Under the pieces are notes generated by a model. That model ran no database searches. It was given only the letters and a program-made list of their open reading frames with translations, and had not been told where the DNA came from. The translations under genes were made by a program, and so were the position numbers. Source: Candidatus Limnocylindrales bacterium (GTDB lineage: Bacteria > Chloroflexota > Limnocylindria > Limnocylindrales > CSP1-4). Taken from it: 37,597 nt of DNA. Location of the stretch: assembly GCA_038322255.1 (NCBI GenBank), contig JBBQFS010000002.1, forward strand, positions 1-37,597, given 5' to 3'. This document shows, in pieces, positions 1,797 to 30,503 of this stretch; the stretch's first letter is position 1, and the number at the start of each line of letters is the position of its first letter.

Positions 1797-2791
1797 TCGA
1801 CGGCCTCGACGTCGCGGTCGCCGGTGAGCTCGAGGTAGCGCTCCTCGAGCGACGCAGCGCCCGCCCGCAGCTCTACGATCAGCAGGCCTTCGCGCGCGGC
1901 CCACTTCGCGATCTCGGCGACGATGTCGGCCGAGGCGGCACCAGGGGCGATCTCGAATTCGGTGGCTTCCTCGTCGCCCGCCTTGTGATCCGCCACGTCA
2001 TGCGAGGCCAGGGCTCGCCCGCCGGGCGCGGGCCGGAGGCGCGATGCGCTGTCGAGGGCGGCGATCCGGCGGCTCAGCCACTCGATGGCCGTTCGCGATG
2101 GGGCGGCATGGAGGCGGAACCGCACGGCGACCGAGCTGCCCCGGAGGATCGCCTCGGGCGCGTCGTCCACCACGATCCGCCCGCCGCTCAGGATCGCGAC
2201 TCGATCCGCGAGCCGCTCGACGTCGCCGAGGTCATGCGTCGTCATCAGGATCGTCCGCCCCTCGTCGCGCAGGTCGCCGACGAGCTCGCGGGTCGTCCTT
2301 CGCGCCTCGGGGTCCATGCCCGCCGTCGGCTCGTCGAGGATGAGGACCTCGGGGTCGCCGGCCAGGGAGATGGCCAGCGCCAGGCGCTGGCGCTCGCCCC
2401 CTGACAGGCGTCGGACGCGCGCCGCGGCAACGCTCGTGAGCCCGACCTGCTCGAGCAGCTCGTCGGGGCTCCGACCGCCGTCGTGGAGCGCCGTGTACAG
2501 GCGGACCAGGTCGCGCGGCGTTGCCCGCGGTTCGAGCCCGGCGCCGCCCTGGAGCATCAGCCCGACGCGCGCCCGCAGCGCCGGTCCGCCGTGCCGGGGG
2601 TCGATCCCGAGCACTCGCGCCGTGCCCGAATCCGCCTTCCGATAGCCCTCGATGATCTCGACCGTCGTCGTCTTGCCGGCCCCGTTCGGGCCGAGCAGCG
2701 CGACGAGCTCGCCCGGCCGGACGACGAGATCGACGCCGTCGAGAACGGTCCGGCCCGCATAGGCCTTGCGCAGGCCGGCGACCTCGATCAC
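1793..2791 (-). CDS. ABC transporter ATP-binding protein (ABC-2/DrrA-like exporter ATPase with C-terminal extension)
   Basis: ORF 1793..2959. Walker A GPNGAGKTT, signature LSGGERQRLALA, Walker B VLILDEPTAGMD, H-loop TTHD. Start placed at GTG 2791 (VIEVAGLRKAY), giving a GTGA overlap with the TlpA-like stop (2788-2790). Confidence 0.9.
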   Translation of the reverse strand: MIEVAGLRKAYAGRTVLDGVDLVVRPGELVALLGPNGAGKTTTVEIIEGYRKADSGTARVLGIDPRHGGPALRARVGLMLQGGAGLEPRATPRDLVRLYTALHDGGRSPDELLEQVGLTSVAAARVRRLSGGERQRLALAISLAGDPEVLILDEPTAGMDPEARRTTRELVGDLRDEGRTILMTTHDLGDVERLADRVAILSGGRIVVDDAPEAILRGSSVAVRFRLHAAPSRTAIEWLSRRIAALDSASRLRPAPGGRALASHDVADHKAGDEEATEFEIAPGAASADIVAEIAKWAAREGLLIVELRAGAASLEERYLELTGDRDVEAVE

Positions 2792-3294
2792 GGGGCGCCG
2801 GAAATCAGCGCGTACTGCCGCTCGAACTCCGCGTCGGTCAGCTGGCCGACCTGGATCGATCGCAGGATTCCGTCGCGATCGATGAAGTACGTCTGTGGCC
2901 GCGCCGCGACCCGGTAGGCGGTGCGAATCCCGCCGGAGGGGTCGTCGACGGTGGGCCACGATGCGCCGTACGCGGCGATGAAGTCCCGCGCCGGCGCGGG
3001 CGAGTCGAAGGTGAGCACGCCGAGAATTGCCAGCCCGTCGGCCGCGTGCTGCGCCAGCCTGGCCTTGAAGAGCGGGAACTCATCGCGGCACGGCACGCAG
3101 CTCGGGCCCCAGAAGTTCACGATCACCGGCCGGCCCCGGAGGGACGCCAGGTCGAAGGCCGATCCGTCGAGCGTGGTTCCGATGACGGCCGGAGCGGGCT
3201 TTCCCCGGGCGATCGAGCCGGAGTCGGACGCCGCCGGCGCATCGAGGCCCGAGCGGATCATTACCAGGGCCAAGGTCGCGATCGCCGCAGCCAC
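2788..3294 (-). CDS. TlpA/ResA-like membrane-anchored thiol:disulfide oxidoreductase (thioredoxin fold)
   Basis: 168-aa ORF with an N-terminal hydrophobic anchor (AAAIATLALVMI) and the CxxC motif in the context VIVNFWGPSCVPCRDEFP, typical of the TlpA/ResA family. GTG start. Confidence 0.85.
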   Translation of the reverse strand: MAAAIATLALVMIRSGLDAPAASDSGSIARGKPAPAVIGTTLDGSAFDLASLRGRPVIVNFWGPSCVPCRDEFPLFKARLAQHAADGLAILGVLTFDSPAPARDFIAAYGASWPTVDDPSGGIRTAYRVAARPQTYFIDRDGILRSIQVGQLTDAEFERQYALISGAP

Positions 3295-3353
3295 GAGCCC
3301 GACGAGGACGGGCCGGCGCTGCCGGTCCAGCTTGAGCGCCGTGACCCGCCCGC

Positions 3354-4451
3354 CTACTTGACCGTCAGGGTCCCGGTCATCGCGTCGATGGGATGGATCG
3401 AGCAGATGAACACGTAGTCGCCGGGCTGGAGCGCGTCGTACTGGTAGGTCTGCGTCGTGCCGCCGGGCGTCGGCTGCTGGTCCTTGATCGTCGTCCCGTC
3501 CTTCGAACGGATTTCGATGTCATGCGTGGTCGTCGGTGGGTCCTCGTTGTGGAAGACGATTGTGAATGGTTGGCCGGCGGTCACTTCGAGCGCCTTCTTG
3601 TCGAAGGCAATGGTCTTGGCGACGATCTCCAGGCCTCCGGCGGGCGGACCGACGCCGCTCGGCAGCGCGCCCGAGGCACCCGGCGAGGCCCCGGGGCCGC
3701 CGGCGGTGGCGGGCGAGGCCGGCGGGAAGATGCCGACCTGCGACAGCACCACGAGGGCGAACAGGACGGCGAACGACTGGAGGGTCCGCGCCGGCAGGCG
3801 CCGAACGGGGATGTTTTCGAGGTGCCCGGTCCGGTCGGCTTCCTCGACCTTGCGGTACTCGGCCGTGAAGTCCAGCAGCCAGCCGAGCAACGTCCAGACG
3901 AGGAAGATCACGGCGAGCACCAGCACCCAGCCGCCGGCGACAAGTCCACCCAGGAGCGCGGCCGAGCCGAGTGCGCCGAGGAGCGGTCGTGTCGACGGCC
4001 CGGGCATGTGGACGCCCGGCGGCGGTCCGGGGTGGACGATCGCCGGCAAGGATCGGCTCGGCTCGATGCGGTCGTAGTCGCGGAGCGCCTCGCGGAACCA
4101 GGCGAGCAGGGTGACGACCAGCACCGCAACGCCGACCCACAGCAGCAAGCCGCCGGCGACGAGGCCGAGGAACAGCGCACCGGCGCCCAGCGCGACGAGA
4201 ATCGGCGCAGACGAGCCGCCGGGCATGTGGACGCTGGCGGGCGTGACCGGCTGGATGCGCGCCGGGGCCCGGCGAGTTGGACCGAGCGTCGCCCACTTCC
4301 GGACCGTCAGCAGGAACCAGGCGAGGAAGAGCAGGGCCAAGCCGATCGGGATGAGGCCGAGGAGCGCATTCCAGTTGGGCGTGATGAAGATCCCCGCCAC
4401 GTTCAGGAGCGTGTCCATGAGGGTCATCGGGGACGGGGATGGAGAGGGCAC
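3354..4451 (-). CDS. Six-TM membrane protein: duplicated subunit-IV (CtaF)-like module fused to a C-terminal type-1 copper cupredoxin domain
   Basis: 365-aa ORF. Two repeated modules each contain VHMPG(G/P)S followed by two TM helices. A Pro/Gly/Ala linker follows, then a ~94-aa domain with the candidate T1Cu ligand set: His in TTTHD, then C-S-I-H-P-x4-M (YVFICSIHPIDAMTG). GTG start at 4451, 16 nt after the upstream stop. Confidence 0.8.
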   Translation of the reverse strand: MPSPSPSPMTLMDTLLNVAGIFITPNWNALLGLIPIGLALLFLAWFLLTVRKWATLGPTRRAPARIQPVTPASVHMPGGSSAPILVALGAGALFLGLVAGGLLLWVGVAVLVVTLLAWFREALRDYDRIEPSRSLPAIVHPGPPPGVHMPGPSTRPLLGALGSAALLGGLVAGGWVLVLAVIFLVWTLLGWLLDFTAEYRKVEEADRTGHLENIPVRRLPARTLQSFAVLFALVVLSQVGIFPPASPATAGGPGASPGASGALPSGVGPPAGGLEIVAKTIAFDKKALEVTAGQPFTIVFHNEDPPTTTHDIEIRSKDGTTIKDQQPTPGGTTQTYQYDALQPGDYVFICSIHPIDAMTGTLTVK

Positions 4452-4467
4452 GATCGCGAGGGGGGCG

Positions 4468-4653
4468 CTATTCGCCGGACTCGGTGTGCAGGACGAAGAA
4501 CATGATCCCGAGGGCCGCGCCGAGCGCGATGAGCATGGTCACGCCGGCGAACTCGATCCGATAGCCGAAGACGGGCGCGAGGGCGCCATAGAGGAGGCCC
4601 GTGACCACGCAGGCGACGGCGATGATGATCGCGTTGCGGTGACGACCGGTCAT
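4468..4653 (-). CDS. Small 2-TM protein resembling the N-terminal half of actinobacterial cytochrome oxidase subunit IV (CtaF)
   Basis: 61-aa ORF between ctaE and the cupredoxin membrane protein. Two hydrophobic helices (IIIAVACVVTGLLYGAL, AGVTMLIALGAALGIMFFVL). From memory, the VVTxLLYGxL...ExAGxTxLxL pattern resembles the CtaF N-terminus. Position in the operon supports a small oxidase subunit. Confidence 0.6.
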   Translation of the reverse strand: MTGRHRNAIIIAVACVVTGLLYGALAPVFGYRIEFAGVTMLIALGAALGIMFFVLHTESGE

Positions 4654-4664
4654 CGGATCCCTCG

Positions 4665-5309
4665 CTACAGCAGGTACAGGATCGAGAACAGCAGGATCCA
4701 GACGACGTCGACGAAGTGCCAGTAGAGCGACACGGCCTCGATGGCGTCATGGTGGCGGGCCGAGAACTGGCCGGCCATGCCGCGGTAGAGCAGCACGCCG
4801 AGCATGAGCACGCCACCGAAGACGTGCGCGCCGTGGAACCCGGTGAGCGTGAAATAGGTCGTCCCGAACGGGCCCGACCCGAGGGTCATGCCCTCACCGA
4901 ACAGGAGCGTGTAGTCGAAGGCCTGCATGATCAGGAAGACGATCCCGAGCACGAACGTGACCGCGATGTTCCGATTGAAACCGCGGCGGTCGCCCCGCCG
5001 GATGGACCACACCGCGAACTGGCAGGTGAACGAGCTCGTGATCAGGATGATCGTCGCGATGATGATCGGCCCGAGCGGGTCGAGGATGTCCGCGAAGACG
5101 TCGGGCGGCCAGGGTTGGTTCGCGGCGCGGGTCGCGAAGTAGGCCGCGAACAGGCCTGAGAAGAACATCACCTCCGAGGTGATGAACAGGATCATCCCCA
5201 GGATCGGGTTGCTGATGCCCCGCTGGGCGTGGCCGCTCGCCGCGGCGTGCGGGTCGGCGTGGGCCACCCCGCCCGAGCCCGAGGCGATCGCCGGCGCTTC
5301 GGCCGTCAC
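4665..5309 (-). CDS. ctaE: Cytochrome c oxidase subunit III
   Basis: 214-aa ORF with hallmark motifs ILFITSEVMFFSGLFAAYF, TGFHGAHVFGGVLML and SLYWHFVDVVWILLF. GTG start 5309 overlaps the ctaD stop (GTGA). Confidence 0.95.
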   Translation of the reverse strand: MTAEAPAIASGSGGVAHADPHAAASGHAQRGISNPILGMILFITSEVMFFSGLFAAYFATRAANQPWPPDVFADILDPLGPIIIATIILITSSFTCQFAVWSIRRGDRRGFNRNIAVTFVLGIVFLIMQAFDYTLLFGEGMTLGSGPFGTTYFTLTGFHGAHVFGGVLMLGVLLYRGMAGQFSARHHDAIEAVSLYWHFVDVVWILLFSILYLL

Positions 5310-7024
5310 GCGGCGTCCCCCGGTCCCTGGTCGTCGTGGTCACCCTCTTCGAGCAGCTTGGGTGCCTCTTCGTCGCCCGGGCCACCGTGTCCGCCGTGGG
5401 CGGCGAGCCCATGGCGCGCGTCGAACAGCGGCCGCTCCGATCGGATCTCCGGCAGCCGATCGAAGTTGTAGGGCGGTGGCGGCGACGAGGTCGCCCATTC
5501 GAGCGTGTTGCCCTCCCACGGATCGTCGCCGGCGATCTTGCCGTTGCGCAGCGAGATGAAGACATTCCAGATGAAGGGCAGGATCGAGGCCGCGATCAGG
5601 AAGCCGCCGATCGTCGCCGCGAGGTTCCAGTCGTTCCAGCCGGCATCCGATGCGTAGTCGGCGATCCGACGGGGCATGCCCTTGATGCCGAGCATGTGCA
5701 TCGGGAAGAAGGTCAGGTTGAAGCCGATGAACATGAGCACGAAGTGGATCTTGCCGAGGCCCTCGTCCAGCATCCGCCCGGTCATCTTCGGGAACCAGTA
5801 GTAGATCCCCGCGAACATCCCGAAGACCGAGCCACCAAAGAGGACGTAGTGCAGGTGGGCCACGACCCAGTAGGTGTCCTGGAGCGCGAAATCGATCGGG
5901 ACCGAGGCGCTGAAGGCGCCGTTGATGCCGCCGATCAGGAACATCGTAAGGAACCCGACCGAGAAGATCAGCGGCGTCGACAGCGTCAGCTGGCCGCGGA
6001 ACAGCGTGAAGACCCAGTTGAACATCTTCACGCCGGTCGGCACGGCGATCAGGAACGTCATCAGGCTGAAGAAGGGCAGGAACACCGCGCCCGTCGTGAA
6101 CATGTGGTGGGCCCAGACGGAGAACCCGAGCGCGCCGATACCCGCCGTCGCGAAGATGAAGGCCTTGTAGCCGAAGAGCGGCTTGCGGCTGAAGACCGGC
6201 AGGACCTCGCTGATCACGCCCATGGCCGGCAGGACCATGACGTACACCGCCGGGTGCGAGTAGAACCAGAAGATGTTCTGGTAGAGGATCGCCTGGCCGC
6301 CCTTGTCGGGCAGGAAGAACGAGCCACCGTAGTTGCGATCGATGAAGAGCATGACCAGGGCGCTGGTGATCACCGGGGTGGCCATGACCACGAGGACGCT
6401 CGTCACGAGGATCGTCCAGACCATGATCGGCATCCGGAACAGGGTCATGCCGGGGGCGCGCATCTTGAAGATCGTCACCAGGAAGTTGATCCCGCCCAGG
6501 ATCGAGCTCGTGCCGATGAGGATCAGCGCGACGATCCAGAGGTCCTGACCGGGACCCGGTGACGACAGTGGACCCCGCTCCGTGAGCGGCGGATAGCTCG
6601 TCCAGCCCGCCGCGGCGGCGCCACCGGGGGTCAGGAACCCCAGGAGCAGCAGCATCCCGCCAAGCGGCAGCATCCAGAACGACAGGGCATTCACCCGCGG
6701 GAACGCCATGTCCGGCGCGCCGATCATCAGTGGCACCGCGAAGTTCCCGAGGCCCGCGAGCATCGGGATGATGAACAGGAAGATCATCACGGTCGCGTGG
6801 ATCGAGAACGACTCGTTGTAGACGTGCTCGTTCTGGAAGATCTGGATTCCCGGCGCCGCCAGCTCGGTCCTGACCAGCAGCGCGAAGACGCCGCCGATGA
6901 GGAAGAACAGGAACGAGTTGATGACGTACATGATCCCGATCTTCTTGTGGTCGGTCGTCGTCAACCACTCGTAGATGCCACCCCGGTAGGCCGGGATGGC
7001 GGGGCTCAGCGCGTGCGTCGCCAT
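5306..7024 (-). CDS. ctaD: Cytochrome c oxidase subunit I (heme-copper oxidase, aa3 type)
   Basis: 572-aa ORF. WLTTTDHKKIGIMY, 12-TM pattern, GGINF, WAHHMFT, HFHYV-like LHYVLFGG and PRRI motifs typical of A-family subunit I. Confidence 0.97.
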   Translation of the reverse strand: MATHALSPAIPAYRGGIYEWLTTTDHKKIGIMYVINSFLFFLIGGVFALLVRTELAAPGIQIFQNEHVYNESFSIHATVMIFLFIIPMLAGLGNFAVPLMIGAPDMAFPRVNALSFWMLPLGGMLLLLGFLTPGGAAAAGWTSYPPLTERGPLSSPGPGQDLWIVALILIGTSSILGGINFLVTIFKMRAPGMTLFRMPIMVWTILVTSVLVVMATPVITSALVMLFIDRNYGGSFFLPDKGGQAILYQNIFWFYSHPAVYVMVLPAMGVISEVLPVFSRKPLFGYKAFIFATAGIGALGFSVWAHHMFTTGAVFLPFFSLMTFLIAVPTGVKMFNWVFTLFRGQLTLSTPLIFSVGFLTMFLIGGINGAFSASVPIDFALQDTYWVVAHLHYVLFGGSVFGMFAGIYYWFPKMTGRMLDEGLGKIHFVLMFIGFNLTFFPMHMLGIKGMPRRIADYASDAGWNDWNLAATIGGFLIAASILPFIWNVFISLRNGKIAGDDPWEGNTLEWATSSPPPPYNFDRLPEIRSERPLFDARHGLAAHGGHGGPGDEEAPKLLEEGDHDDQGPGDAA

Positions 7025-7037
7025 GCTCGCTGGCTCC

Positions 7038-8156
7038 TTACTTCACGGTCAGGGTGCCGGTCATCCCCGGGACGCCGGGATGCACCGAGCAGAAATACTG
7101 GTAGGTGCCGGCCGCGAGGGGCTTGTAGCTGTAGGTTCCGGTCGAGCCGCCGGGGACCGGCGCCTGGTCGGCGACGACCGACGAGCCATCGGGACTCTTG
7201 ATGTCGACGTCGTGGGTGACCGTGGCCGGGTCCTCGTTCTTGAAGTCGATCACGAACGGGGCGTTGGCCGTTGCTTCGAGCGCGTGCTTGTCGTAGGCGA
7301 TGTTCTTGGCGGCGAGCGCGAGCACCGATGCGCCTGACGGCGCGGGCGCCGGGGTCGCATTCGCGGTCTCGACGAGCTTGGCCAGCCAGGCGTCGTAATC
7401 GGCCGGGGTCATGGCGACCACGCTGAAGAGCATGACTCGGTGCCCGGCCCCGCAGAGCTCGGCGCACTGGCCGTGGAAGGTCTGGCCTGCCTCGTCCTGG
7501 TTCACCGTGAACTCGAAGTGGTTCGTCTGGCCGGGCACGACATCGCGCTTGAACAGGAACCGCGGGACGTACCAGGCGTGGATGACGTCGCCGCTGTCGA
7601 GCGTGACATAGACCTTCTTGCCGACCGGGACGGCCATCCCGCCACCGTCGCCGTTCGGCTTGGTCTGCGTGGCCAGGTGCTTGCCGTCCTTGTCCAGGTA
7701 CTCGAACTGCCACTGGAACTGGCCGGCCAGCACGTGAATGCGGACGTCCGGGCCCGGCGGCGTCTGGGTGATGGCGTCGACGTGGCCAAGCGTCGACCAG
7801 GAGATCGCGAAAAGGTAGAGCACGATCACGGTCGGGATCAGCGTCCAGAGCGCCTCGACGAGGTTGTTGCCGTGGGTCTGGGGCGGGAGGTCGACGTCGC
7901 CCGGGCGGCGGCGGTATCGCAGGATGCTCCAGACGATCAGGCCCTCGACCGCGATGAAGATCACGACGGCGAGCGCGAAGACGATGTCGTACAGCGCGCT
8001 GACTTCGCTCGCCTGGGCGGTCGCCGGCTTCGGCGGGTACAGCGCCGAGCCGGCTCCACTCAGGAAGACCAGCCCGACGATGGCGATCAGCAGGATGACG
8101 ACGCCACCGGCGACGATCGCTTCGGAGGCGGGGCCCTTCCTCGGACTGGTCGACAT
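7038..8156 (-). CDS. ctaC: Cytochrome c oxidase subunit II (CuA) with fused C-terminal type-1 copper cupredoxin domain
   Basis: Part of ORF 7038..8618. Start placed at ATG 8156 (MSTSPRKG..., GAGGAG just upstream); everything upstream is Arg/Pro-rich. Two TM helices, then CuA motifs HAWYVP and CAELCGAGHRVM. An Ala/Pro linker follows, then a ~98-aa domain (about 7041-7334) with TVTHD and YFCSVHPGVPGMTG. Confidence 0.93.
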   Translation of the reverse strand: MSTSPRKGPASEAIVAGGVVILLIAIVGLVFLSGAGSALYPPKPATAQASEVSALYDIVFALAVVIFIAVEGLIVWSILRYRRRPGDVDLPPQTHGNNLVEALWTLIPTVIVLYLFAISWSTLGHVDAITQTPPGPDVRIHVLAGQFQWQFEYLDKDGKHLATQTKPNGDGGGMAVPVGKKVYVTLDSGDVIHAWYVPRFLFKRDVVPGQTNHFEFTVNQDEAGQTFHGQCAELCGAGHRVMLFSVVAMTPADYDAWLAKLVETANATPAPAPSGASVLALAAKNIAYDKHALEATANAPFVIDFKNEDPATVTHDVDIKSPDGSSVVADQAPVPGGSTGTYSYKPLAAGTYQYFCSVHPGVPGMTGTLTVK

Positions 8157-8259
8157 GACTCCTCGGCTGCGTCGTCGGGGCCGGCGCCCGATGCCTGGGA
8201 CGGGGCCTGTCGGGCAGGGAACACGCGAACGGCCGACCCTGGGAGGCCAGCCGGCGGCC

Positions 8260-8265
8260 ATCATA
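8260..8265 (-). promoter_or_regulatory. Candidate -10 box (TATGAT) for the ctaC operon
   Basis: Minus strand reads gcTATGATggc about 100 nt upstream of the ctaC ATG, in the 148-bp divergent ctaC/ctaG intergenic region. No convincing -35. Confidence 0.25.
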
Positions 8266-8304
8266 GCGCGAGGCCCCTGCGGCGCGCCGTGCGACCATGG
8301 CGCC

Positions 8305-9363
8305 GTGCTCATTCGCATCGATCTTCGGGCCCGGTTCGCCACCCTCGCGACGGTCCTGATCGGAGCCGCGCTCGCCTCACCGGCGGTCGCAGCAGCGCAC
8401 GGCACGGTCCCGCCCGATCCGCCGACGCTGGCGAATCTGGTCCTCGCCTGGCTGTTCGATCCGCTGATTGCCGGATCGCTCCTCGCCGCGGCGGTCGGCT
8501 GGGTGCTCCTCGTCGGCCGGGTCGCCCGGCTCCATCCCGGCCGGCCGGTGCCGATCGCTCGATCCGCTGCGTTCCTCGGCGGGCTGGCCGCGATCGCCGT
8601 CGCGCTCCTGTCGGGCATCGAGCGCTACGACACGACGCTCTTTTCGATCCATATGGTTCAGCACCTGCTTCTCATGCTCGTGGCCGCCCCCCTCATCGCC
8701 CTGGCCGCGCCGGTCACGCAGCTCCTTCGGGCGGCCTCGGCCGATGCACGGCGCCGGTTCGTATTGCCGGTGCTGCACTCGACGGCGTTCGCCGCGCTCG
8801 GCCACCCCGTCGTGGCGTGGCTCACCTTCACGCTCGTCCTGTGGGTCAGCCACTTCTCGCCGTTGTTCGACCTGGCCCTCGAGAACCCGGGGATCCACCA
8901 GCTCGAGCACGGCGCGTTCCTGGTTTCGGCCCTGCTCTTCTGGTGGCCGGCCGTCGCGGCCGATCCTGCGCCTCGTCGCCTTGCGTACCCGGCCCGTGCC
9001 GGGTACCTGCTGCTCCAGCTGCCCCTGGGGTCGTTCCTCGGGATGGCGATCCTCTTCGCAGCGACCCCGCTCTACGCCCACTACGCGACGCTCGGCATGC
9101 CCTACGGCATCTCGCCTTTGGCCGACCAGCAACTTGCCGGCGGGATCATGTGGCTGGCAGGCGACGTGGTGCTCATCGCCGCGGTCCTCGCCGTGGTCGC
9201 GGCGTGGATGCGCCACGATCAGCGCGATGCGCCCGCGGCGGACCGCCGAGCTGATGCCCAGCGGGCCGCGATCAACGTGCGTGCCGCGCGGCTTGCTCGC
9301 GGTAAGGCGGCGGGAGCGAGCGCGCCGGGGGCCGAGGCGGACCCACGGATCGCGGCGGACTAG
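8305..9363 (+). CDS. ctaG: Cytochrome c oxidase assembly factor CtaG (Bacillus/caa3_CtaG type membrane protein)
   Basis: Part of ORF 7864..9363. Start placed at in-frame GTG 8305 (VLIRIDLRARFATLATVLIGAALASPAVAAAHG, signal-like). Multi-TM with FSIHMVQHLLLMLVAAPL, HQLEHGAFL, LLFWWP and DQQLAGGIMW, as in the caa3_CtaG family. Divergent from ctaC. Confidence 0.85.
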   Translation: MLIRIDLRARFATLATVLIGAALASPAVAAAHGTVPPDPPTLANLVLAWLFDPLIAGSLLAAAVGWVLLVGRVARLHPGRPVPIARSAAFLGGLAAIAVALLSGIERYDTTLFSIHMVQHLLLMLVAAPLIALAAPVTQLLRAASADARRRFVLPVLHSTAFAALGHPVVAWLTFTLVLWVSHFSPLFDLALENPGIHQLEHGAFLVSALLFWWPAVAADPAPRRLAYPARAGYLLLQLPLGSFLGMAILFAATPLYAHYATLGMPYGISPLADQQLAGGIMWLAGDVVLIAAVLAVVAAWMRHDQRDAPAADRRADAQRAAINVRAARLARGKAAGASAPGAEADPRIAAD

Positions 9364-10433
9364 GGGATCGGCGATTCCAGGAGCTTGAGGTAGACGTCGG
9401 GGTCGACGTTTCCGCCCGAGACCACGGCGACGACAGTTCCCACGAGCCCGTCGATTCCAGCCTCGCGAGCGCGGAAGCGGGCCGCCGCCGGTGCCAGCGC
9501 GCCGGACGGCTCGACGACAAGCCGCGACTCCTCCGCGATCAGGCGGACGCCCGCGGCGATCTCCGCCTCGGGCACGGTCACGATGTCGTCGAGGAGGCGC
9601 GACAGGTGGGCGAAGTTCCGTTCGCCGATGGCCTGCGAGCGGACCCCGTCGGCGATGGTGCTGGTCACCTGCGCCGCGTCCCAGCGCACGACCCGGCCCT
9701 CGCGCAGCGACTCGGCCGCGTCGGCGGCGAGCTCCGGCTCGACCCCGAGGATTCGCGCCGTTGGGTGGAGCGCGCGAATCGCCACGGCGACGCCGCTCGA
9801 GAGGCCACCCCCGCCCACCGGGATCAGCACGGCCGCGAGATCAGGCACGTCCTCGGCGATCTCGAGCCCGAGGGTGCCCTGGCCGGCGATGATCCGGTCG
9901 TCGTCGTACGGCGGGATGAAGACGAGCCCTCGCTCCCGCGCGAGCTCCTCGGCCTTCGCCTCGCGCTCGCTGCTGGCAGGCCCGACCATCACGACCTCGG
10001 CCCCGTCGGCCTCGACCCGGCCGCGCTTGATCGCCGGCGCGTTCGAGGGCATGACGATCACGGCGTGGGTCCGGAGCAGCCGCGCGGCGAGGGCCACGCC
10101 CTGCGCATGGTTGCCCGACGAGTGGGTGACGACGCCGCGGCGGCGCTCGTCGGGCGAGAGCAACGAGATGGCGTGGTACGCGCCCCGGATCTTGAAGGCG
10201 CCGATCGGCTGGAGTGACTCGGCCTTGAGGAGCACACGGGGGCCGCCAGCGCCGGCGAAACCGAAGGGAATCAGGGGCGTTCGAAGGGCCACTCCCGCGA
10301 GATTCGCGGCGGCGCCCCGGATGTCGTCGATCGAAACCAGGCGCTCGTCCCTGCCTTTGTCATCGCCCCCCGTCGCCGGCGGTCCCGAGCCGGCTCGCGC
10401 GGCCGCGATGCGGGTCATGACGTCGCTTTCCAT
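9360..10433 (-). CDS. PLP-dependent threonine/serine dehydratase (fold-type II, short form)
   Basis: ORF 9360..10529. ESLQPIGAFKIRGA (PLP lysine), SSGNHAQG, PVGGGGL. Start placed at ATG 10433, a 1-nt overlap (TGATG) with the upstream DksA-like stop. Confidence 0.85.
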   Translation of the reverse strand: MESDVMTRIAAARAGSGPPATGGDDKGRDERLVSIDDIRGAAANLAGVALRTPLIPFGFAGAGGPRVLLKAESLQPIGAFKIRGAYHAISLLSPDERRRGVVTHSSGNHAQGVALAARLLRTHAVIVMPSNAPAIKRGRVEADGAEVVMVGPASSEREAKAEELARERGLVFIPPYDDDRIIAGQGTLGLEIAEDVPDLAAVLIPVGGGGLSSGVAVAIRALHPTARILGVEPELAADAAESLREGRVVRWDAAQVTSTIADGVRSQAIGERNFAHLSRLLDDIVTVPEAEIAAGVRLIAEESRLVVEPSGALAPAAARFRAREAGIDGLVGTVVAVVSGGNVDPDVYLKLLESPIP

Positions 10434-16481: not shown

Positions 16482-16985
16482 TCAGCCTGCGGCGGCCAGG
16501 ATCTCCCGCAGCTGTGTGGCGTGGCCTTCGGTGTGGCCGACCAGGAATGGTTCCAGCATCTCGCGAACGGTCATCTCGCCGCGAGTCGGGTGGATCCCGC
16601 GTTGCGATGCCTCGTTCTCGTTGAGTTCGCCGAGTCGCTTCGCGACCCGCGCAGCGTCGGCTTCGATCCGCGAGAAGAGCTCGCCGAGGGGGAGGCTCCG
16701 GTCGCGCCCGATGACCCCGATGCGGAGATCGTCCGTCGCGACACGCCCAAATGGCACCGGCGCCCGGCCGTCGCCGGCAAGAACCCGCTCGATCTCGCCC
16801 AGCCAATACCGCAGGTACTCCTCGACATGCGCGAGCAGCTCCGGTGGCCCCCAGCTTGCCTCCGGCTCCGGGCCGTACAGTTCCGCGAGCGGCCATGGCC
16901 CACCTGCCTCGACCTCGCCCCGGAGCGTCAGCATCTGGCTCGCTGCCCTCTCGAGCCGCAGAACCTCACCAGAAAGCGCAGTCAC
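16482..16985 (-). CDS. DinB-family (DinB_2 / MDMPI_N-like) four-helix-bundle protein
   Basis: 3-prime part of ORF 16482..17240. LAHVEEYLRYW, IHPTRGEMTV and LVGHTEGHATQL give the His pattern of DinB-like proteins. Start tentatively GTG 16985 (alternative ATG 16934). The upstream ORF part is a 13-nt repeat array, not coding. Confidence 0.7.
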   Translation of the reverse strand: MTALSGEVLRLERAASQMLTLRGEVEAGGPWPLAELYGPEPEASWGPPELLAHVEEYLRYWLGEIERVLAGDGRAPVPFGRVATDDLRIGVIGRDRSLPLGELFSRIEADAARVAKRLGELNENEASQRGIHPTRGEMTVREMLEPFLVGHTEGHATQLREILAAAG

Positions 16986-17050
16986 CGCCGGAGTGTTGCA
17001 CGCGGGCGCTCGCCGGGCTGTCGCGCCCGCGGCGCCTCGGCTGCGCATTC

Positions 17051-17170
17051 TCTCGTTCGGCCTCGGGTTCGCTCCGGGCTTTTCTCCCAGGCTTTCGATC
17101 CGGGCTTTCGCCCCATCGTTTCGCGCCATCCGTTTCGCGCCCTCGGTCTCCCGTCCTTCGTTTCGAGCCC
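17051..17170. repeat. Degenerate tandem array, about 9 units of 12-15 nt (13-nt period), core (G/C)(G/T)TTTCG
   Basis: Plus-strand units: tctcgttcggcc / tcgggttcgctc / cgggcttttctcc / caggctttcgatc / cgggctttcgcccc / atcgtttcgcgcc / atccgtttcgcgcc / ctcggtctcccgtc / cttcgtttcgagccc. T-rich cores start at about 17055, 17067, 17080, 17093, 17106, 17119, 17133 and 17161. Intergenic and lower in GC than the surroundings. Confidence 0.7.
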
Positions 17171-17295
17171 AACTTGATGCACCCTCGTTGTCGCGCTCTC
17201 GCCAAGCACGACCACGTACCTCAACTGCGCTGCAGCCCAAATCGAATTTGCTTCCACGTAAGCGAAACCATCGACTTCAGGGGCCGATTCGATTT

Positions 17296-17614
17296 TCAAC
17301 GTCGACCCGATTCGTCGACCTGCGATCGGGGTAACCCAGGGAGTTCCACGCCGGCCAGCCAGGCCGTGATGGGACCGAGCATTCGGGCATTCACCACGTA
17401 CACGCGCCCTCGGTCGTCGAGTCGCGACCAGGTCGAGCGGATGAGTCCGGCCTCGCGCATCAGCCGGAGGTGGTGGGTCGTCGCCGGCCGGCTTTCGACC
17501 GATTGCAGCTGCGATCGCCGAAGAGCGCATCCCCCGAACGGCGAGCATCGACATGATCCGCCGTCGGTTCGGGTCGACCAGAAGCTCGATGCCACGGCCT
17601 CGTCGTGCAGGCAT
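17296..17614 (-). pseudogene. ArsR/SmtB-family transcriptional regulator with an apparent +1 frameshift
   Basis: The N-terminal half (MPARRGRGIELLVDPNRRRIMSMLAVRGMRSSAIAAAIG) is in the frame of ORF 16982..17857. The recognition helix and wing (SRPATTHHLRLMREAGLIRSTWSRLDDRGRVYVVNARMLGPITAWLAG) are in the frame of ORF 17296..17733. Junction within 17491-17503 (cggctttcgaccg). Total length 319 nt, i.e. 3n+1. Confidence 0.7.
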
Positions 17615-17920
17615 GGCCACAGGATGCGACCGGTCGCTTGGCGCGTGGTTACCCGCGAATTGACGGTTTCGCTTATTTGGAACGATTTCCGATTTGGCGC
17701 TACGGGCGAAGGACCTTCGCCGCCGTGCGGCACCTGCGGCCTTCGGCACGGGCGAAACCTCCGCTGGTCGGCCGCGCCGGGTGGGCGACAGCCGGCGGAA
17801 CCGTTTGTCCTGCTGCAACGAGGGCGGGACTATCATGCGAGCAACTCGTCGCTCCAATTCAGCGGCGACGGCTCGCGCGACTCGTGCGCCGTCATCGCGT
17901 CACCAGGGGAGCTGCGTTCG

Positions 17921-19147
17921 ATGACTGAGACGATCACCCGGGGCGCCCCCAGGCAGGCCGGCGCCAACGCCGACAAAGGCGCCGCCAATGCCAACAAGGG
18001 CGCCATCAACCAGGCCGGCGCGCACGTCAACAAAGATGCGTACGCTGAGGCCAAGGATTTCCTGCCGCTCAACGGTGTGGACCATGTCGAGTTCTGGGTG
18101 GGCAACGCGCGCCAGGCAGCCCACTACTACCGGGCCCTGTGGGGCTTCACGCCGATCGCCTACGCCGGGCTCGAGACCGGAATCCGCGATCGGACGAGCT
18201 ATGTCCTGCGCCAGAACGACATCACGCTCGTCGTCACCGGAGCGCTGAATCCCGATACCGAGATCGCCGCGCACGTGAACCGTCATGGCGACGGTGTCAA
18301 GGACATCGCCTTCAATGTTGACGACGCCGCCAGCTCGTGGCGCGAGACAACCAGCCGCGGCGCCAAGTCCGCGATCGAGCCGGTCGAGCTCGATGGCGGT
18401 GAGGATGGAACTCTGCGACGCAGCGCCATTGGAACCTACGGCGACGTCCGGCACTCGTTCATCGACCGTCGCGACTATCACGGCGTCTTCGCGCCCGGCT
18501 ATCGAAAGATCAAGAAGCCGGCCGCGGCAGCCGGAGGCCTCTCGCTGCTCGAGATCGATCACTGCGTCGGCAACGTCGAGCTCGGCGATATGAACAAGTT
18601 CGTCGACTACTACCGCGACGTCTTCGGCTTCGCCCAGCTCATCCACTACGACGACAAGGTCATCCACACCGAGTACTCGGCACTCATGTCGAAGGTCATG
18701 ACCAACGGCAACGGCCGGATCAAGTTCCCGATCAACGAGCCTGCATCGGGCAAGAAGAAAAGCCAGATCCAGGAGTTCCTCGACTACTACCTGGACAACG
18801 GCACCCAGCACATCGCGCTCCGGACCGAGGACATCGTGACGACGGTTCGGCGGCTTCGCGAGAACGGGATCGAGTTCCTCGGCATGCCGCACGCCTACTA
18901 CGAGAATCTCGCCGACCGCGTCGGCGACGTCGGCGTCCCGATCGAAACGCTCGAGGAGCTCGGGATCGAGGCCGACCGGGACGAGGAGGGCTACCTCCTG
19001 CAGATCTTCACCCGCCCGATCCAGGATCGCCCGACGTTCTTCTTCGAGATCATCGAGCGCCACGGCTCGCGGGGCTTCGGCGTCGGCAACTTCAAGGCCC
19101 TGTTCGAGGCAATCGAGATCGAGCAGGCTCGGCGGGGCAACTTGTAG
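17921..19147 (+). CDS. hppD: 4-hydroxyphenylpyruvate dioxygenase
   Basis: 3-prime part of the 798-aa ORF 16751..19147. Start placed at ATG 17921 (MTETITRG), with AGGGGAG upstream. VDHVEFWVGNARQAAHYY, IDHCVGNVE, GTQHIALRT, FFFEIIERHGSRGFGVGNFKALFEAIE are hallmark HppD motifs. Confidence 0.95.
   Translation: MTETITRGAPRQAGANADKGAANANKGAINQAGAHVNKDAYAEAKDFLPLNGVDHVEFWVGNARQAAHYYRALWGFTPIAYAGLETGIRDRTSYVLRQNDITLVVTGALNPDTEIAAHVNRHGDGVKDIAFNVDDAASSWRETTSRGAKSAIEPVELDGGEDGTLRRSAIGTYGDVRHSFIDRRDYHGVFAPGYRKIKKPAAAAGGLSLLEIDHCVGNVELGDMNKFVDYYRDVFGFAQLIHYDDKVIHTEYSALMSKVMTNGNGRIKFPINEPASGKKKSQIQEFLDYYLDNGTQHIALRTEDIVTTVRRLRENGIEFLGMPHAYYENLADRVGDVGVPIETLEELGIEADRDEEGYLLQIFTRPIQDRPTFFFEIIERHGSRGFGVGNFKALFEAIEIEQARRGNL
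17960..18043 (+). repeat. Four degenerate 21-nt (heptad) repeats encoding the N-terminal extension of HppD
   Basis: GANADKG / AANANKG / AINQAGA / HVNKDAY, from ggcgccaacgccgacaaaggc gccgccaatgccaacaagggc gccatcaaccaggccggcgcg cacgtcaacaaagatgcgtac. Confidence 0.6.
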
Positions 19148-21559: not shown

Positions 21560-22615
21560 ATGCGCGTCGCCCACGTTCGCGAACGACATGCCGCCGCCGG
21601 CGCGCCCTGGCGGCTCGCCGCCGCGGCGCCGGGAGCCGATTCCTGGCTGGACCTGGAGGTGGCGCGCCGCCGCCTCGTCGCGGCCGACCCACGGCGCGCC
21701 CACAACTCGATCCTCTTCCGGCAGCCGATCACGACGCTGGATGAGCTCCTCGGGCGAGGGCTGCGAATCGAGGCGTTGCGCGAGATCGTGGAGGGTTTTG
21801 CCGCCGCAGGTGGCGCCCACGACGACGACGATGCCGTCCTGGGAGCGGCGAATCTCGCCTTCGGGCCGCCCGTGCTGCGGCCCCCGTCCTTCCGCGACTT
21901 CTATGCCTTCGAGCAGCACGTCGCGACGATGTGGGGCCGACGCGGCAGCGAGATCCCCGAGGCCTGGTTCCGCCTGCCGATCTTCTACTTCTCGAACACC
22001 TCCGAGGTCCGTGGGCCTGGCGACCCGGTCTGGGCACCGCGTGGCAGTTCCGAGCTCGATTTCGAACTGGAGCTCGGGGCGATCGTCGACACCCCGGCGT
22101 ACAACCTGTCCGAGGAGCGCGCGGCAGAGGCGATCGGCGGTTACTGCATCGTCAACGACTGGTCGGCGCGAGACCTCCAGCGTGACGAATCCACCGTCCG
22201 GCTCGGGCCGGCGAAGGGCAAGGACTTCGCGCTGACCATCGGACCCTGGATCACGACGCCCGACGAGCTTGTCGACCTCTGGGCACCCGGGGCGACCGCT
22301 CCGGATCTCGTGGCCACCGCGACCGTCACCAGCGCGGACGGTCGAACGACCGAGGTGTCTCGGGCATCGCTCGCGACCGCCCGCTACTCGTGGGGCCAGA
22401 TGCTGGCCCGGGCTTCGGCGGACGTCCACATCCGCCCGGGCGAGATCCTCGGCAGCGGGACCGTCGGGACCGGGTGCCTGCTGGAGGTCAAGGACACGAC
22501 CCTGCGCCGCTGGATCGAGCCAGGAGATGTCGTCACCCTCGCCATCGAGCGGCTCGGCGAGCTCCGAACGCCGATCGTAGCCCGCTCCAGCGCGAACGAT
22601 TTGCCCCGCAGATGA
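21560..22615 (+). CDS. fahA: Fumarylacetoacetase-like hydrolase (FAH family)
   Basis: 351-aa ORF. DFYAFEQHV, PIFYFSN, ELDFELELG, GYCIVNDWSARDLQ and LGPAKGKDFA parallel the motifs of true fumarylacetoacetases. Confidence 0.85.
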   Translation: MRVAHVRERHAAAGAPWRLAAAAPGADSWLDLEVARRRLVAADPRRAHNSILFRQPITTLDELLGRGLRIEALREIVEGFAAAGGAHDDDDAVLGAANLAFGPPVLRPPSFRDFYAFEQHVATMWGRRGSEIPEAWFRLPIFYFSNTSEVRGPGDPVWAPRGSSELDFELELGAIVDTPAYNLSEERAAEAIGGYCIVNDWSARDLQRDESTVRLGPAKGKDFALTIGPWITTPDELVDLWAPGATAPDLVATATVTSADGRTTEVSRASLATARYSWGQMLARASADVHIRPGEILGSGTVGTGCLLEVKDTTLRRWIEPGDVVTLAIERLGELRTPIVARSSANDLPRR

Positions 22616-23405: not shown

Positions 23406-24629
23406 ATGTACTACGTCCAGCACGGCAGCGTTCCTCGCCAGCGCCACACGCAGCACCGGGCGCCCGATGGGAGCCTGTATGCGGAGGAGCTGTTCGGGGT
23501 CGAGGGCTTCACGGGGCGCAGCTCGCTCCTGTACCACCTCGTGCCCCCAACCCGAACGCACAAGATCGAGCCGCTGCGCGAGATTCGGTTGGAAGCTGCC
23601 GGCGAGAAGACGCACCGCCACCACCTGACCAAGACGGGCGATGTCGCGCCCAAGGGCGACGCAATCACCGGGCGCGTGCCGCTGTACTTCAACAGCGATG
23701 TCGTGTTCGGCGTCGTGCGCCCCGCCGAGGCGATGCCCGAGGGAACGTTCTACCGGAACGGCGTGGCCGACGAGATGCTGTTCGTCCACGAAGGCACGGG
23801 CGTCTGCGACACGATCTTCGGACCGCTGCGCTACGGGCCGGGCGACTACCTCGTCCTGCCGATCGGCACGACGTGGCGCCTCGATCCCGATCCTGGCTCA
23901 ACCCAGCGGATGCTGTACCTCGAGGCGCCGTCGGAGATCGAGCCGCCGAAGCGCTATCGGAATGACTATGGCCAGCTGCTCGAGCACTCGCCCTACTCGC
24001 AACGCGATCTCCACGACCCGGAGGACGTCCCGGCTCGGAGCGACGAAGGCGACTTCGTCATCCACGTCCGCTCGACCGACCTGCTAACGGCGTACCACTA
24101 CCGGCACCACCCGTTCGACGTCGTCGGCTGGGACGGCTACCTCTGGCCGTTCCGGTTCAACATCGCCGACTTCCAGCCGATCACCGGGCGCGTCCACCAG
24201 CCGCCGCCGGTCCACCAGACGTTCCAGGCGCGGAACTTCGTGGTCTGCTCGTTCGTGCCTCGCAAGTTCGACTACCACCCCCTCGCGATCCCGGCGCCCT
24301 ATAACCATTCCAACATCAACAGTGACGAGGTCATCTACTACGTCGCCGGCAACTTCATGAGCCGGCGGGGGGTCGAGATCGCCTCGTTCACCCTCCACCC
24401 GGCAGGGATCCCGCACGGGCCGCATCCCGGAACGGTCGAGGCGTCGATCGGCAAGGAATCCACCGAGGAGCTTGCGGTCATGGTCGACACGTTCCATCCG
24501 CTCAAGCTCACCAAAGCCGCCCTCGAGCTCGACGACGACCGGTACCCGTATTCGTGGCTCCCGTCCGACGACCACGCGAAGGAAGCCTCCGAGCTCGCGG
24601 AGCGAGGCCCGGAGGCATTCCCGGATTGA
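23406..24629 (+). CDS. hmgA: Homogentisate 1,2-dioxygenase (short bacterial form)
   Basis: 407-aa ORF. The cupin core with FYRNGVADEMLFVHEG, HQPPPVHQTF, YNHSNINSDEV and LHPAGIPHGPHPG resembles the short HmgA family. Confidence 0.9.
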   Translation: MYYVQHGSVPRQRHTQHRAPDGSLYAEELFGVEGFTGRSSLLYHLVPPTRTHKIEPLREIRLEAAGEKTHRHHLTKTGDVAPKGDAITGRVPLYFNSDVVFGVVRPAEAMPEGTFYRNGVADEMLFVHEGTGVCDTIFGPLRYGPGDYLVLPIGTTWRLDPDPGSTQRMLYLEAPSEIEPPKRYRNDYGQLLEHSPYSQRDLHDPEDVPARSDEGDFVIHVRSTDLLTAYHYRHHPFDVVGWDGYLWPFRFNIADFQPITGRVHQPPPVHQTFQARNFVVCSFVPRKFDYHPLAIPAPYNHSNINSDEVIYYVAGNFMSRRGVEIASFTLHPAGIPHGPHPGTVEASIGKESTEELAVMVDTFHPLKLTKAALELDDDRYPYSWLPSDDHAKEASELAERGPEAFPD

Positions 24630-30002: not shown

Positions 30003-30503
30003 GTGACTGAACTCACAGAACGGGCCGTCGCATCGCGCGTGCCGGGCCTCATCGACGAAAAGCTCAAGGTGCTCACCCGTCGAGATCCGATCACGGTCGC
30101 TCCGGGAACCTCGCTCCAGACATGCCTCGAACGAATCCGCCAGGCGGGAACCGCTGATTCGGTCTTCGTGATCGACCCGGCGGGTCGCCTGCTCGGCGTG
30201 CTCACCGAGCGCGATATCTTTGCCCGGCTCGTCGGGCCCGGCACGGATCTCTCGCAGCCGGTCGAGCGACTGATGGTCGACCACCCGAACACGCTCCACC
30301 TCGACGAGCCGATCCGCCGCGCCGTCGAGCTCATGCAGACCGGCCGATTCCGCAATGTGCCGCTTGTCGACGATGACGCCGTGCTGGTCGGGGTCGTCCG
30401 CCCGGTCGACGTCCTCAAGTACCTCGCCGAGGCGTTTCCCGAGGAGCTCCTCAACCTGCCGCCGCGGCCGCACCAGCGCATGGTCGCCACGGAGGGCGCG
30501 TGA
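30003..30503 (+). CDS. CBS-pair domain protein
   Basis: Part of ORF 29808..30503. Start tentatively GTG 30003 (alternative GTG 29976). Two CBS motifs (ITVAPGTSLQTCLERI...GVLTERDIF; TLHLDEPIRRAVELM...RNVPLVDDDAVLVGVVRPVDVL). The stop overlaps the korA GTG (GTGA at 30500-30503). Confidence 0.8.
   Translation: MTELTERAVASRVPGLIDEKLKVLTRRDPITVAPGTSLQTCLERIRQAGTADSVFVIDPAGRLLGVLTERDIFARLVGPGTDLSQPVERLMVDHPNTLHLDEPIRRAVELMQTGRFRNVPLVDDDAVLVGVVRPVDVLKYLAEAFPEELLNLPPRPHQRMVATEGA

Follow-up and report, generated by a model that had tools for sequence, protein, structure and literature searches.

The operon described here raises the question of how an oxidase receives its electrons if two of its subunits end in a copper domain of their own and none has a recognisable site for haem c. 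It lies in a stretch of 37,597 nucleotides (~69% G+C) from a Candidatus Limnocylindrales bacterium (GCA_038322255.1, contig JBBQFS010000002.1), referred to as the window, and consists of the genes for oxidase subunits II, I and III (ctaC, ctaD and ctaE), a small membrane protein of 61 amino acids (aa), a membrane protein of 365 aa, and a TlpA-like thiol-disulfide oxidoreductase. CtaC and the 365-aa protein each end in a domain with the ligand pattern of type-1 copper (T1Cu) proteins, denoted cupredoxin 1 and cupredoxin 2, respectively. By analogy with the caa3 oxidases, the operon probably encodes a caa3-like oxidase of A2 type whose attached carrier is a type-1 copper cupredoxin instead of haem c. 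The coordinates of all features are collected in the table; loci and contigs are denoted by L numbers, individual proteins by P numbers.

Judged by sequence and modelled fold, both domains are type-1 (blue) copper cupredoxins of the plastocyanin/azurin/auracyanin superfamily. The Pfam family Cupredoxin_1 matches them with scores of 37.4 and 39.6 (cut-off 27); PF00127 (Copper-bind, cut-off 21.2) matches cupredoxin 2 above its cut-off (21.7) and cupredoxin 1 below it (19.4). The ligands of cupredoxin 1 are H315 (window 7212-7214), C356 (7089-7091), H359 (7080-7082) and M365 (7062-7064), those of cupredoxin 2 are H310 (3522-3524), C350 (3402-3404), H353 (3393-3395) and M358 (3378-3380), and the corresponding loops read CSVHPGVPGM (C-x2-H-x5-M) and CSIHPIDAM (C-x2-H-x4-M). 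We aligned the last 105 residues of ~240 sequences, comprising top homologues of both proteins (longer than 340 aa) and the two window domains. Each of the four ligands (His/Cys/His/Met) is conserved to 100% in both families, and the set is likewise invariant in 24 divergent fusions. The two domains share 54 of 97 residues (56%, E value 6e-37) as well as the terminal motif MTGTLTVK, in agreement with an earlier note on this stretch, which had put the identity at about half by eye and had pointed to the common end. The nearest sequences of solved structure are auracyanin A, the T1Cu domain of the nitrite reductase AniA, and plastocyanin; auracyanin 2aan is matched with E values of 1.8e-5 and 3.4e-8. 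In the AlphaFold models the cupredoxin parts are all-beta, with a predicted local distance difference test score (pLDDT) of ~90 for cupredoxin 1 and ~93 for cupredoxin 2 (range ~90-95). The top Foldseek match of cupredoxin 2 is an auracyanin of Roseiflexus (6kol, E value 2.8e-7), followed by a Nitrosopumilus cupredoxin, proteins of the Cupredoxin_1 family, and amicyanin.

Domains of this kind might also serve in copper delivery, as chaperones or stores that load CuA and CuB in the manner of PCuAC or CupA. Assembly genes (tlpA and ctaG) flank the oxidase genes, no gene for Sco or PCuAC was seen in the window, and CupA (4f2e) is found among the weaker Foldseek matches, at rank 28. The ligand set and its spacing, however, are those of canonical electron-transfer type-1 sites and are invariant in both families, whereas copper chaperones use Met/His or Cys/Met sites for Cu(I) and type-1 sites bind copper too tightly for hand-over. 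The best matches by sequence and fold are auracyanin, amicyanin and plastocyanin, and the same domain occurs fused to a cytochrome c beside Rieske and cytochrome b genes, as described below. We therefore regard a chaperone function as very improbable. TlpA and CtaG are ordinary oxidase assembly factors, hence their presence is uninformative with respect to an additional copper demand; the heavy demand for copper-site maturation that the earlier note had read from these neighbours does not follow.

CtaC begins with a signal-like helix (its start, MSTSPRK, is conserved), followed by two transmembrane helices, the CuA domain, a linker, and the C-terminal cupredoxin. It passes the cut-off of the NCBIfam model TIGR02866 (score 176.9, cut-off 147.7). 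The CuA site is normal, as previously stated: the ligands H193, C231, E233, C235, H239 and M242, in the pattern H ... C-x-E-x-C-x3-H-x2-M, are complete and invariant among 32 homologues. The description of an Ala/Pro linker that leads into a blue-copper domain is also borne out, by the Pfam match and the complete ligands; in the AlphaFold model of CtaC, residue 265 is the last of a helix and residue 277 the first of the opening strand of the cupredoxin. The CuA domain and everything after it, including cupredoxin 1, are predicted to lie outside the membrane, since the usual two transmembrane helices precede them.

The best solved match to CtaC is subunit II of the caa3 oxidase known from Thermus thermophilus and Rhodothermus marinus (2YEV; E value 1.2e-35, Foldseek rank 1), which likewise has an electron carrier fused C-terminally, directly after the CuA domain. 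The alignment to chain 2yev_B ends at residue 273 of CtaC and at residue 235 of 337 of the chain, hence cupredoxin 1 begins where the cytochrome c domain of the Thermus protein begins, in accordance with the position assigned to it previously. In Paracoccus, Trp121 is the electron entry residue for soluble cytochrome c. The residue aligned with it (chain 1ar1_B) is F147 of CtaC (window 7716-7718), an invariant Phe that is also present in subunit II of the Thermus caa3 oxidase. The window oxidase differs from the caa3 type in that its carrier is a T1Cu cupredoxin and not haem c, in that a second carrier is attached to a CtaF-like subunit, and in that subunits I and III are encoded by separate genes. 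Among solved structures, none spans a CuA domain plus a second cupredoxin on one chain.

Subunit I places the enzyme more closely. The Pfam family COX1 covers CtaD over its entire profile (1-436 of 436), and TIGR02891 is matched with a score of 704.8 (cut-off 670.75). Among solved structures, mycobacterial CtaD comes nearest (E value 7e-200); it has FGHPEVY where the window protein has YSHPAVY, within FWFYSHPAVY. We take YSHP.VY to be the A2 signature, in which Tyr-Ser replaces the Glu of the A1 motif GHPEVY and which is common to the caa3 oxidases of Thermus and Rhodothermus. On these motifs, the oxidase is an A2-type haem-copper oxygen reductase of the A family. Its haem type is not readable from sequence, and the earlier designation "aa3-type" is not established. 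The haem c motif CxxCH is absent from all six frames of 2701..9400; in the whole window it is found three times only, each time in an open frame of 31-40 codons. The predicted oxidase lacks a fused haem c domain and is not a member of the caa3 type. The claim that a cytochrome c module is missing thus holds for the operon and for the window, but perhaps not for the whole respiratory chain, given the candidate Rieske/cytochrome b6 partner discussed below.

The 365-aa protein combines the second cupredoxin with a membrane part that had been described as similar to subunit IV. PF12270 (Cyt_c_ox_IV) indeed matches in two stretches (E value 3.7e-9, 37.2 bits, cut-off 26.9); for some homologues this match is faint or missing in precomputed tables. 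Hydropathy and the AlphaFold model agree on six helices. The membrane part is internally duplicated (48% identity over 73 aa, E value 4e-20), and each repeat opens with an invariant VHMPG.S motif. The two sites, H75-M76-P77 (window 4221-4229) and H148-M149-P150 (4002-4010), lie at the predicted cytoplasmic membrane interface, and their His and Met could be metal ligands. Pfam aligns helix 1 to the second-helix region of actinobacterial CtaF (profile 39-125); sequence and profile searches with the membrane part matched no solved CtaF chain. Three Lys/Arg-rich loops (residues 51-78, 124-157 and 199-222) share one side of the membrane, and the N-terminus, which is uncharged, lies with the C-terminal tail on the opposite one. 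By the positive-inside rule, hydropathy and the CtaF match, cupredoxin 2 is predicted to lie on the outer face of the membrane, an orientation that we take to agree with the mycobacterial structures as far as the CtaF match is concerned. Both cupredoxins are thus placed outside by prediction, and not in the cytoplasm. The linker between membrane part and cupredoxin 2 is disordered in the AlphaFold model (pLDDT <50 at residues 242-269). The earlier note was correct in assigning a second cupredoxin to a six-helix protein of the same operon; its gene does not follow ctaE directly, as an open reading frame (ORF) of 61 aa intervenes.

Both fusions could in principle be artefacts, if a separate plastocyanin-like gene had become attached to ctaC and to the subunit-IV gene through misassembly or a frameshift. 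We found no support for this explanation: the only frameshifts seen are those of a long-read contig outside the window (L084). The top 120 homologues of CtaC (356-377 aa, 72-96% identity) have the same three Pfam domains and stem from JGI, ENA, NCBI and Logan assemblies; the corresponding 120 sequences for the 365-aa protein give a similar picture, except for two truncated sequences and a few in which one Pfam domain is not listed. A JGI contig of 1.43 Mb (L001, Ga0672937_0000003), whose CtaC is 79% identical, has the identical gene order including the 61-aa ORF and tlpA, and farther upstream it likewise has the genes for an ABC transporter, PALP and DksA. The gene order of two ENA contigs is the same as in the window. 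Because the synteny is identical in independent contigs, the assembly error that had been named as a possible cause is excluded. A T1Cu loop behind the CuA motif is furthermore kept in 36 divergent 50%-identity cluster representatives among 172 sequences (the 150 representatives listed when 1.84 billion of them were searched, and 22 members of such clusters), with identities to the window CtaC down to ~27-40%. We give the artefact practically no credence.

The fusions are widely distributed. A scan of GTDB species representatives, which used the CuA-plus-cupredoxin alignment of divergent fusions and is a sample rather than a census, yielded at least 22 full-length fusions, all of them in metagenome-assembled genomes (MAGs). 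Most are labelled Chloroflexota, "Chloroflexia" or with names beginning in Limnocylindr; the labels of four others are Actinomycetota, Actinomycetes or Mycobacteriales, and in Streptomyces, Kribbella and similar genera CtaC is unfused. The survey of distribution proposed earlier thus finds CtaC-cupredoxin fusions in many Chloroflexota and in some actinobacterial MAGs. The operon with two cupredoxins is present in ~13 of the at least 22 GTDB loci, the remainder having the CtaC fusion only, and among the matches listed it is confined to loci labelled Chloroflexota or Limnocylindria. Long contigs that carry it include CAWEZH010000002.1 (2.04 Mb, L005) and CAVZVS010000004.1 (1.0 Mb, L013). Within the operon, the second cupredoxin is found down to ~30-45% sequence identity. 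The organism labels of the homologues, where a label is given, are Candidatus Limnocylindria or Limnocylindrales or generic Chloroflexota, with a few odd ones (Patescibacteria, Dormibacteraeota). For example, L008 (DATNFQ010000138.1) has a two-cupredoxin oxidase operon with 50-79% identity to the window proteins, P0088 is a CtaC with 74% identity, and P0143 is a protein of the 365-aa type with 68% identity. Their labels read "Patescibacteria group bacterium" and "Candidatus Dormibacteraeota", and the three are probably mislabelled MAGs. Two tandem cupredoxins occur in 2 of the 36 divergent fusions. Divergent CtaC proteins with two tandem cupredoxins after the CuA domain include P0281 (499 aa) and P0294 (458 aa), and many divergent CtaC fusions have a lipoprotein-type signal peptide and a conserved Cys pair that opens the cupredoxin domain.

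We note that the design is not unique to the window: database proteins that have it number in the thousands, and there are haloarchaeal precedents (PMC3128077, PMC3509893). The database names of these proteins are restricted to "cytochrome c oxidase subunit II", "plastocyanin" or "hypothetical". In the literature searched, mostly outside subscription journals, no description was found of bacterial fusions of T1Cu domains with CtaC, CtaF or cytochrome c; a paper on NirS fusions of Chloroflexi (PMC8756737) has no direct bearing on the CtaC-cupredoxin fusions, and the same applies to PMC3750248, PMC10654088 and PMC3475470.

The arrangement has consequences for the presumed path of electrons. The type-1 copper proteins plastocyanin, halocyanin, sulfocyanin and auracyanin are established donors to haem-copper oxidases. 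From position and analogy we infer that either cupredoxin may feed CuA. Cupredoxin 1 would be the proximal donor, and cupredoxin 2 on its long tether would act as a swinging relay or as a second entry point, which collects electrons from a quinol-oxidising complex and hands them to cupredoxin 1 or directly to CuA. TlpA would keep the cysteines of CuA, and perhaps of T1Cu, in the reduced state, and CtaG would load CuB.

A narrower path is conceivable in which only the CtaC-fused cupredoxin takes part in the main electron transfer and cupredoxin 2 is a docking or structural element, the entry for another donor, or a redox buffer. The CtaC fusion indeed occurs without a second cupredoxin in eight loci (L003, L011, L015, L020, L023, L007, L016 and L018), and the two domains differ in the spacing of their loops and in the length of their linkers (12 versus ~30 residues). 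Cupredoxin 2 nevertheless holds all four ligands in 120 of 120 homologues, and its retention in the operon at the low identities given above, together with this conservation, fits a redox rather than a purely structural role. We consider a path that bypasses cupredoxin 2 unlikely, and retain the reading of a caa3-like oxidase with tethered copper carriers.

A candidate for the upstream partner of such an oxidase comes from relatives of the cupredoxin domain. The domain profile also found free-standing relatives, among them a class of lipoproteins (P0471) in which a long Ala/Ser/Pro linker precedes the cupredoxin. The paralogues P0471 (L002:10001-10525) and P0481 (L083:8001-8495) have the lipobox LVAC and ~50% identity to the CtaC cupredoxin; both adjoin the transhydrogenase genes pntAB, with no respiratory genes beside them. 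The gene neighbourhood in L085 was not informative either. A different context is that of P0427 in L084: directly upstream of its gene lie four others, whose products are an FAD/FeS oxidoreductase, proteins resembling cytochrome b6 and subunit IV, and a Rieske protein. Between the Rieske gene and the cupredoxin part, a stretch without called genes encodes a transmembrane anchor and a cytochrome c of class I (CARCH). Long-read frameshifts interrupt this stretch, which is why the gene caller missed the cytochrome c part.

With the cytochrome b6 of L084 as query, at least 80 loci were found in JGI metagenome contigs. Fourteen of them have a cytochrome b6 at least 78% identical to the query and a complete third gene; in every one of these, the ORF after the Rieske gene (342-554 aa) encodes a transmembrane anchor, one CxxCH motif, and a C-terminal cupredoxin. 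Seven of the 14 have a plastocyanin-like loop, and Pfam assigns Cytochrom_C and Cupredoxin_1 to both proteins tested (L090 and L106). The loop of the other seven is auracyanin/azurin-like (C-x2-P-G-H-x3-M) and was recognised by motif only; in the sole fusion of this kind tested, L092, which has two tandem cupredoxins by motif, Pfam found no cupredoxin. At 60-72% cytochrome b6 identity, seven loci have a dihaem QcrC-like protein after the Rieske gene, and others a monohaem one. The cytochrome c-fused cupredoxins are interleaved in similarity with the oxidase-tethered ones: one is 69% identical to the subunit-IV cupredoxin of L009, and the fusion of L106 shows 53% to the subunit-IV cupredoxin of the window, values comparable to the 56% between the two window domains. 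The comparison suggests that a cupredoxin has replaced the second haem domain of the QcrC-like subunit, where it would face the cupredoxins tethered to the oxidase.

The upstream partner would then be a complex of Rieske protein and cytochrome b6, with a third subunit that is anchored in the membrane and combines a monohaem cytochrome c with a cupredoxin of the window subfamily. The putative wire would lead from the Rieske centre via haem c to the T1Cu of this subunit, to one or two T1Cu of the oxidase, and via CuA and haem a to O2, such that a diffusible carrier would be dispensable. The tethered cupredoxins might instead be fed by the oxidation of extracytoplasmic substrates, by way of Fe(II), a route suggested for rusticyanin or sulfocyanin, or of a periplasmic dehydrogenase, and not by a quinol-oxidising complex. 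Amicyanin, which accepts electrons from a periplasmic dehydrogenase in methylotrophs, is among the structural matches. Blue copper proteins have roles in substrate oxidation in Acidithiobacillus and Ferroplasma (PMC10654088). No gene for a dehydrogenase of this kind or for iron oxidation was found in the window or in syntenic loci, however, and close paralogues of the cupredoxins are located in Rieske/cytochrome b6 clusters. We deem such a source of electrons most unlikely, and favour a quinol-oxidising complex as the donor.

A more far-reaching proposal is offered tentatively. Limnocylindria-type Chloroflexota and some Actinomycetota might possess a hard-wired assembly of complexes III and IV in which cupredoxins replace haem c at three covalent points, a wiring not described so far. 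The three points would be the QcrC-like subunit (haem c plus T1Cu in place of the dihaem cc), the duplicated CtaF-like subunit, and subunit II. The chain would run from Rieske to haem c, over three successive T1Cu sites to CuA, and would be mostly copper-based. We regard this joint claim as possible but doubtful.

Several observations weigh against the proposed path. The Rieske/b6 cluster with the cytochrome c-cupredoxin fusion is absent from the window, no contig was found with both clusters, and none of the 80 metagenome loci is located on the contig of L001. The link of the cluster to the lineage consists of the similarity of the cupredoxins and of a possibly matching fragment (P0465) labelled Limnocylindrales; a 4-mer classifier of Limnocylindria-type versus actinobacterial loci gave intermediate scores for the cluster contigs, a result confounded by gene content. 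The CtaC cupredoxin stands alone in several relatives (L003, L011, L015, L020, L023 and the actinobacterial loci). Since these relatives manage with the CtaC cupredoxin alone, the second cupredoxin is dispensable for the basic design. Finally, an unfused CtaC occurs beside cytochrome b or dihaem qcr genes in L029, L031 and L074, hence there are other electron routes, and more than one module of complexes III and IV in the class. L029 and L031, both from Candidatus Limnocylindrales, have unfused CtaC and CtaD beside a cytochrome b gene. L074 (2340-7958), from a Chloroflexota MAG, has a cluster in the actinobacterial style, which unites genes for a dihaem cytochrome c, Rieske and cytochrome b with cta genes.

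The operon can be compared to four further systems. The actinobacterial bcc-aa3 assembly of Mycobacterium smegmatis, M. tuberculosis and Corynebacterium glutamicum (6ADQ, 6HWH, 7Q21) has a hard-wired electron path from complex III to complex IV without a soluble carrier. It provides the closest subunit I, as noted above; the NCBIfam models of actinobacterial CtaC, CtaD and CtaE are the top matches of the respective window proteins, below their cut-offs, and both systems have a subunit similar to CtaF/Cyt_c_ox_IV. Unlike the window protein, mycobacterial CtaD is of A1 type, and the wire there is a dihaem QcrC with no cupredoxin. Mycobacterial CtaF is a single four-helix unit (~130-140 aa), whereas the window protein has six helices in a duplicated partial unit, followed by a linker and a cupredoxin. 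No solved cupredoxins come nearer in sequence and fold than auracyanins A and B of Chloroflexus and Roseiflexus, from the same phylum, which are membrane-tethered carriers in respiration and photosynthesis. In contrast to the window domains they are free-standing, have the loop C-x2-P-G-H-x3-M, and have alternative complex III as partner; the window domains, with plastocyanin-like C-x2-H-x4/5-M loops and fused to oxidase subunits, are not auracyanins sensu stricto.

Two archaeal systems are similar in principle. In the SoxM assembly of Sulfolobus acidocaldarius, which comprises Rieske, cytochrome b and oxidase components, a membrane-anchored sulfocyanin (SoxE) replaces cytochrome c. Sulfocyanin is a separate polypeptide, and in this archaeal system subunits I and III are fused (I+III); it is set apart here by description and not by sequence. 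Work on the SoxM/sulfocyanin assembly is cited in PMC3750248. Halocyanin is the donor to the ba3 oxidase of Natronomonas pharaonis and is fused to subunit IIa in Halobacterium and Haloarcula (PMC3128077); a halocyanin gene is also found inside the haloarchaeal Rieske/split-cytochrome-b cluster (PMC3509893). As in the window, a T1Cu carrier is proposed to act between a Rieske complex, there with split cytochrome b, and a haem-copper oxidase, and it is fused to a small transmembrane subunit of the oxidase. The oxidase is archaeal and of the B family, whereas the window oxidase is of the A family. Halocyanin is N-terminal to one IIa helix (P-x-G-T/Trp motif), the window cupredoxin C-terminal to a six-helix CtaF-like part, and the haloarchaeal systems have neither a fusion to subunit II itself nor an operon with two cupredoxins. 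In concept, no precedent comes closer than these halocyanin fusions of Haloarchaea.

The genes ctaC, ctaD, ctaE, the 61-aa ORF, the 365-aa gene, and tlpA form one tight operon, with gaps of -4 to 16 nt up to the 365-aa gene and of 59 nt before tlpA. A scan for promoters and terminators of the operon found nothing above chance. The 61-aa protein has no Pfam or NCBIfam match and is probably a small oxidase subunit; its ORF is kept at the same position in L001, L004, L005, L014, L017, L021, L166 and L167. The TlpA-like protein matches AhpC-TSA (E value 2.5e-21) and Redoxin (E value 2e-15), and the NCBIfam models of the ResA subfamily and of TlpA, these two below cut-off. In L001 and in most loci of the Chloroflexota type the gene follows the oxidase genes; in actinobacterial loci it was not detected. 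The position of ctaG is the same in L001 and L003-L025. No ctaA or ctaB was identified in the window, and the ten largest ORFs elsewhere in the window include no further gene recognised as respiratory. Between 16751 and 24629 the window contains genes of the homogentisate pathway, namely an HPPD-like Glyoxalase-fold domain in a long ORF (16751-19147), an FAA hydrolase (21560-22615), and an HgmA_N-like protein (23406-24629, weak match). A two-gene 2-oxoacid:ferredoxin oxidoreductase (POR/POR_N, TPP_enzyme_C) is located at 30500-33500.

Table. Features of the oxidase locus (window coordinates) and of related clusters in metagenome contigs (locus coordinates).
Feature	Position	Strand	Description
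ctaC	7038..8156	minus	subunit II, 372 aa; Pfam COX2_TM + COX2 + Cupredoxin_1
CuA domain of CtaC	7362..7757	minus	residues 134-265
linker between CuA domain and cupredoxin 1	7326..7361	minus	12-residue Ala/Pro linker, residues 266-277, NATPAPAPSGAS
cupredoxin domain 1	7041..7325	minus	CtaC residues 278-372; Pfam Cupredoxin_1, E value 2.8e-9
ctaD	5306..7024	minus	subunit I, A family, predicted A2 subtype; Pfam COX1, E value 1.5e-160
ctaE	4665..5309	minus	subunit III; Pfam COX3, E value 1.9e-38
61-aa ORF	4468..4653	minus	two-helix membrane protein; two hydrophobic segments
365-aa gene	3354..4451	minus	Pfam Cyt_c_ox_IV + Cupredoxin_1
membrane part of 365-aa protein	3723..4451	minus	residues 1-243; six transmembrane helices, tandem duplication
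linker to cupredoxin 2	3636..3722	minus	Pro/Ala/Gly/Ser, residues 244-272, ~30 residues
cupredoxin domain 2	3357..3635	minus	365-aa protein residues 273-365; Pfam Cupredoxin_1, E value 5.5e-10
tlpA	2788..3294	minus	TlpA/ResA-like, membrane-anchored thiol-disulfide oxidoreductase; CxxC in WGPSCVPC; AhpC-TSA, Redoxin
ctaG	8305..9363	plus	Caa3_CtaG assembly factor; PF09678, E value 2e-69; divergent from ctaC
Rieske/b6 clusters with a cytochrome c-fused cupredoxin of the window subfamily	L084:3328-8420; L089:7980-9188; L090:2215-3243; L102:3165-4274; L103:7871-9271; L105:3214-4338; L106:3269-4345; L112:7510-8562		
fusions with auracyanin-like loop	L092:3197-4861; L094:4797-5993; L095:2215-3423; L116:8060-9223; L117:6623-7846; L118:2203-3507; L136:1856-3046		
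dihaem QcrC-like loci	L121:2594-3400; L122, L126, L128, L131, L138, L161		gene after Rieske

Bacteria of the Limnocylindria and of related lineages have been described as widespread in soil, sediment and freshwater (PMC13212565). Their respiration is known from gene lists only, and every genome found to carry the operon is a MAG. Judged from the genes, the architecture is real and abundant in these uncultured lineages, and the mechanism is plausible. If it is true, the main oxidase of these bacteria would draw its electrons via built-in copper domains, convergent with the caa3 and the haloarchaeal halocyanin systems, and the slot after CuA on subunit II could be occupied by either a haem or a copper carrier. 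Three questions would become testable now: how tethered carriers with unlike linker lengths cooperate, how the supply of copper and iron influences respiratory chains, and by what route Actinobacteria came to have a dihaem QcrC wire, given relatives that have a cupredoxin in place of one haem domain.

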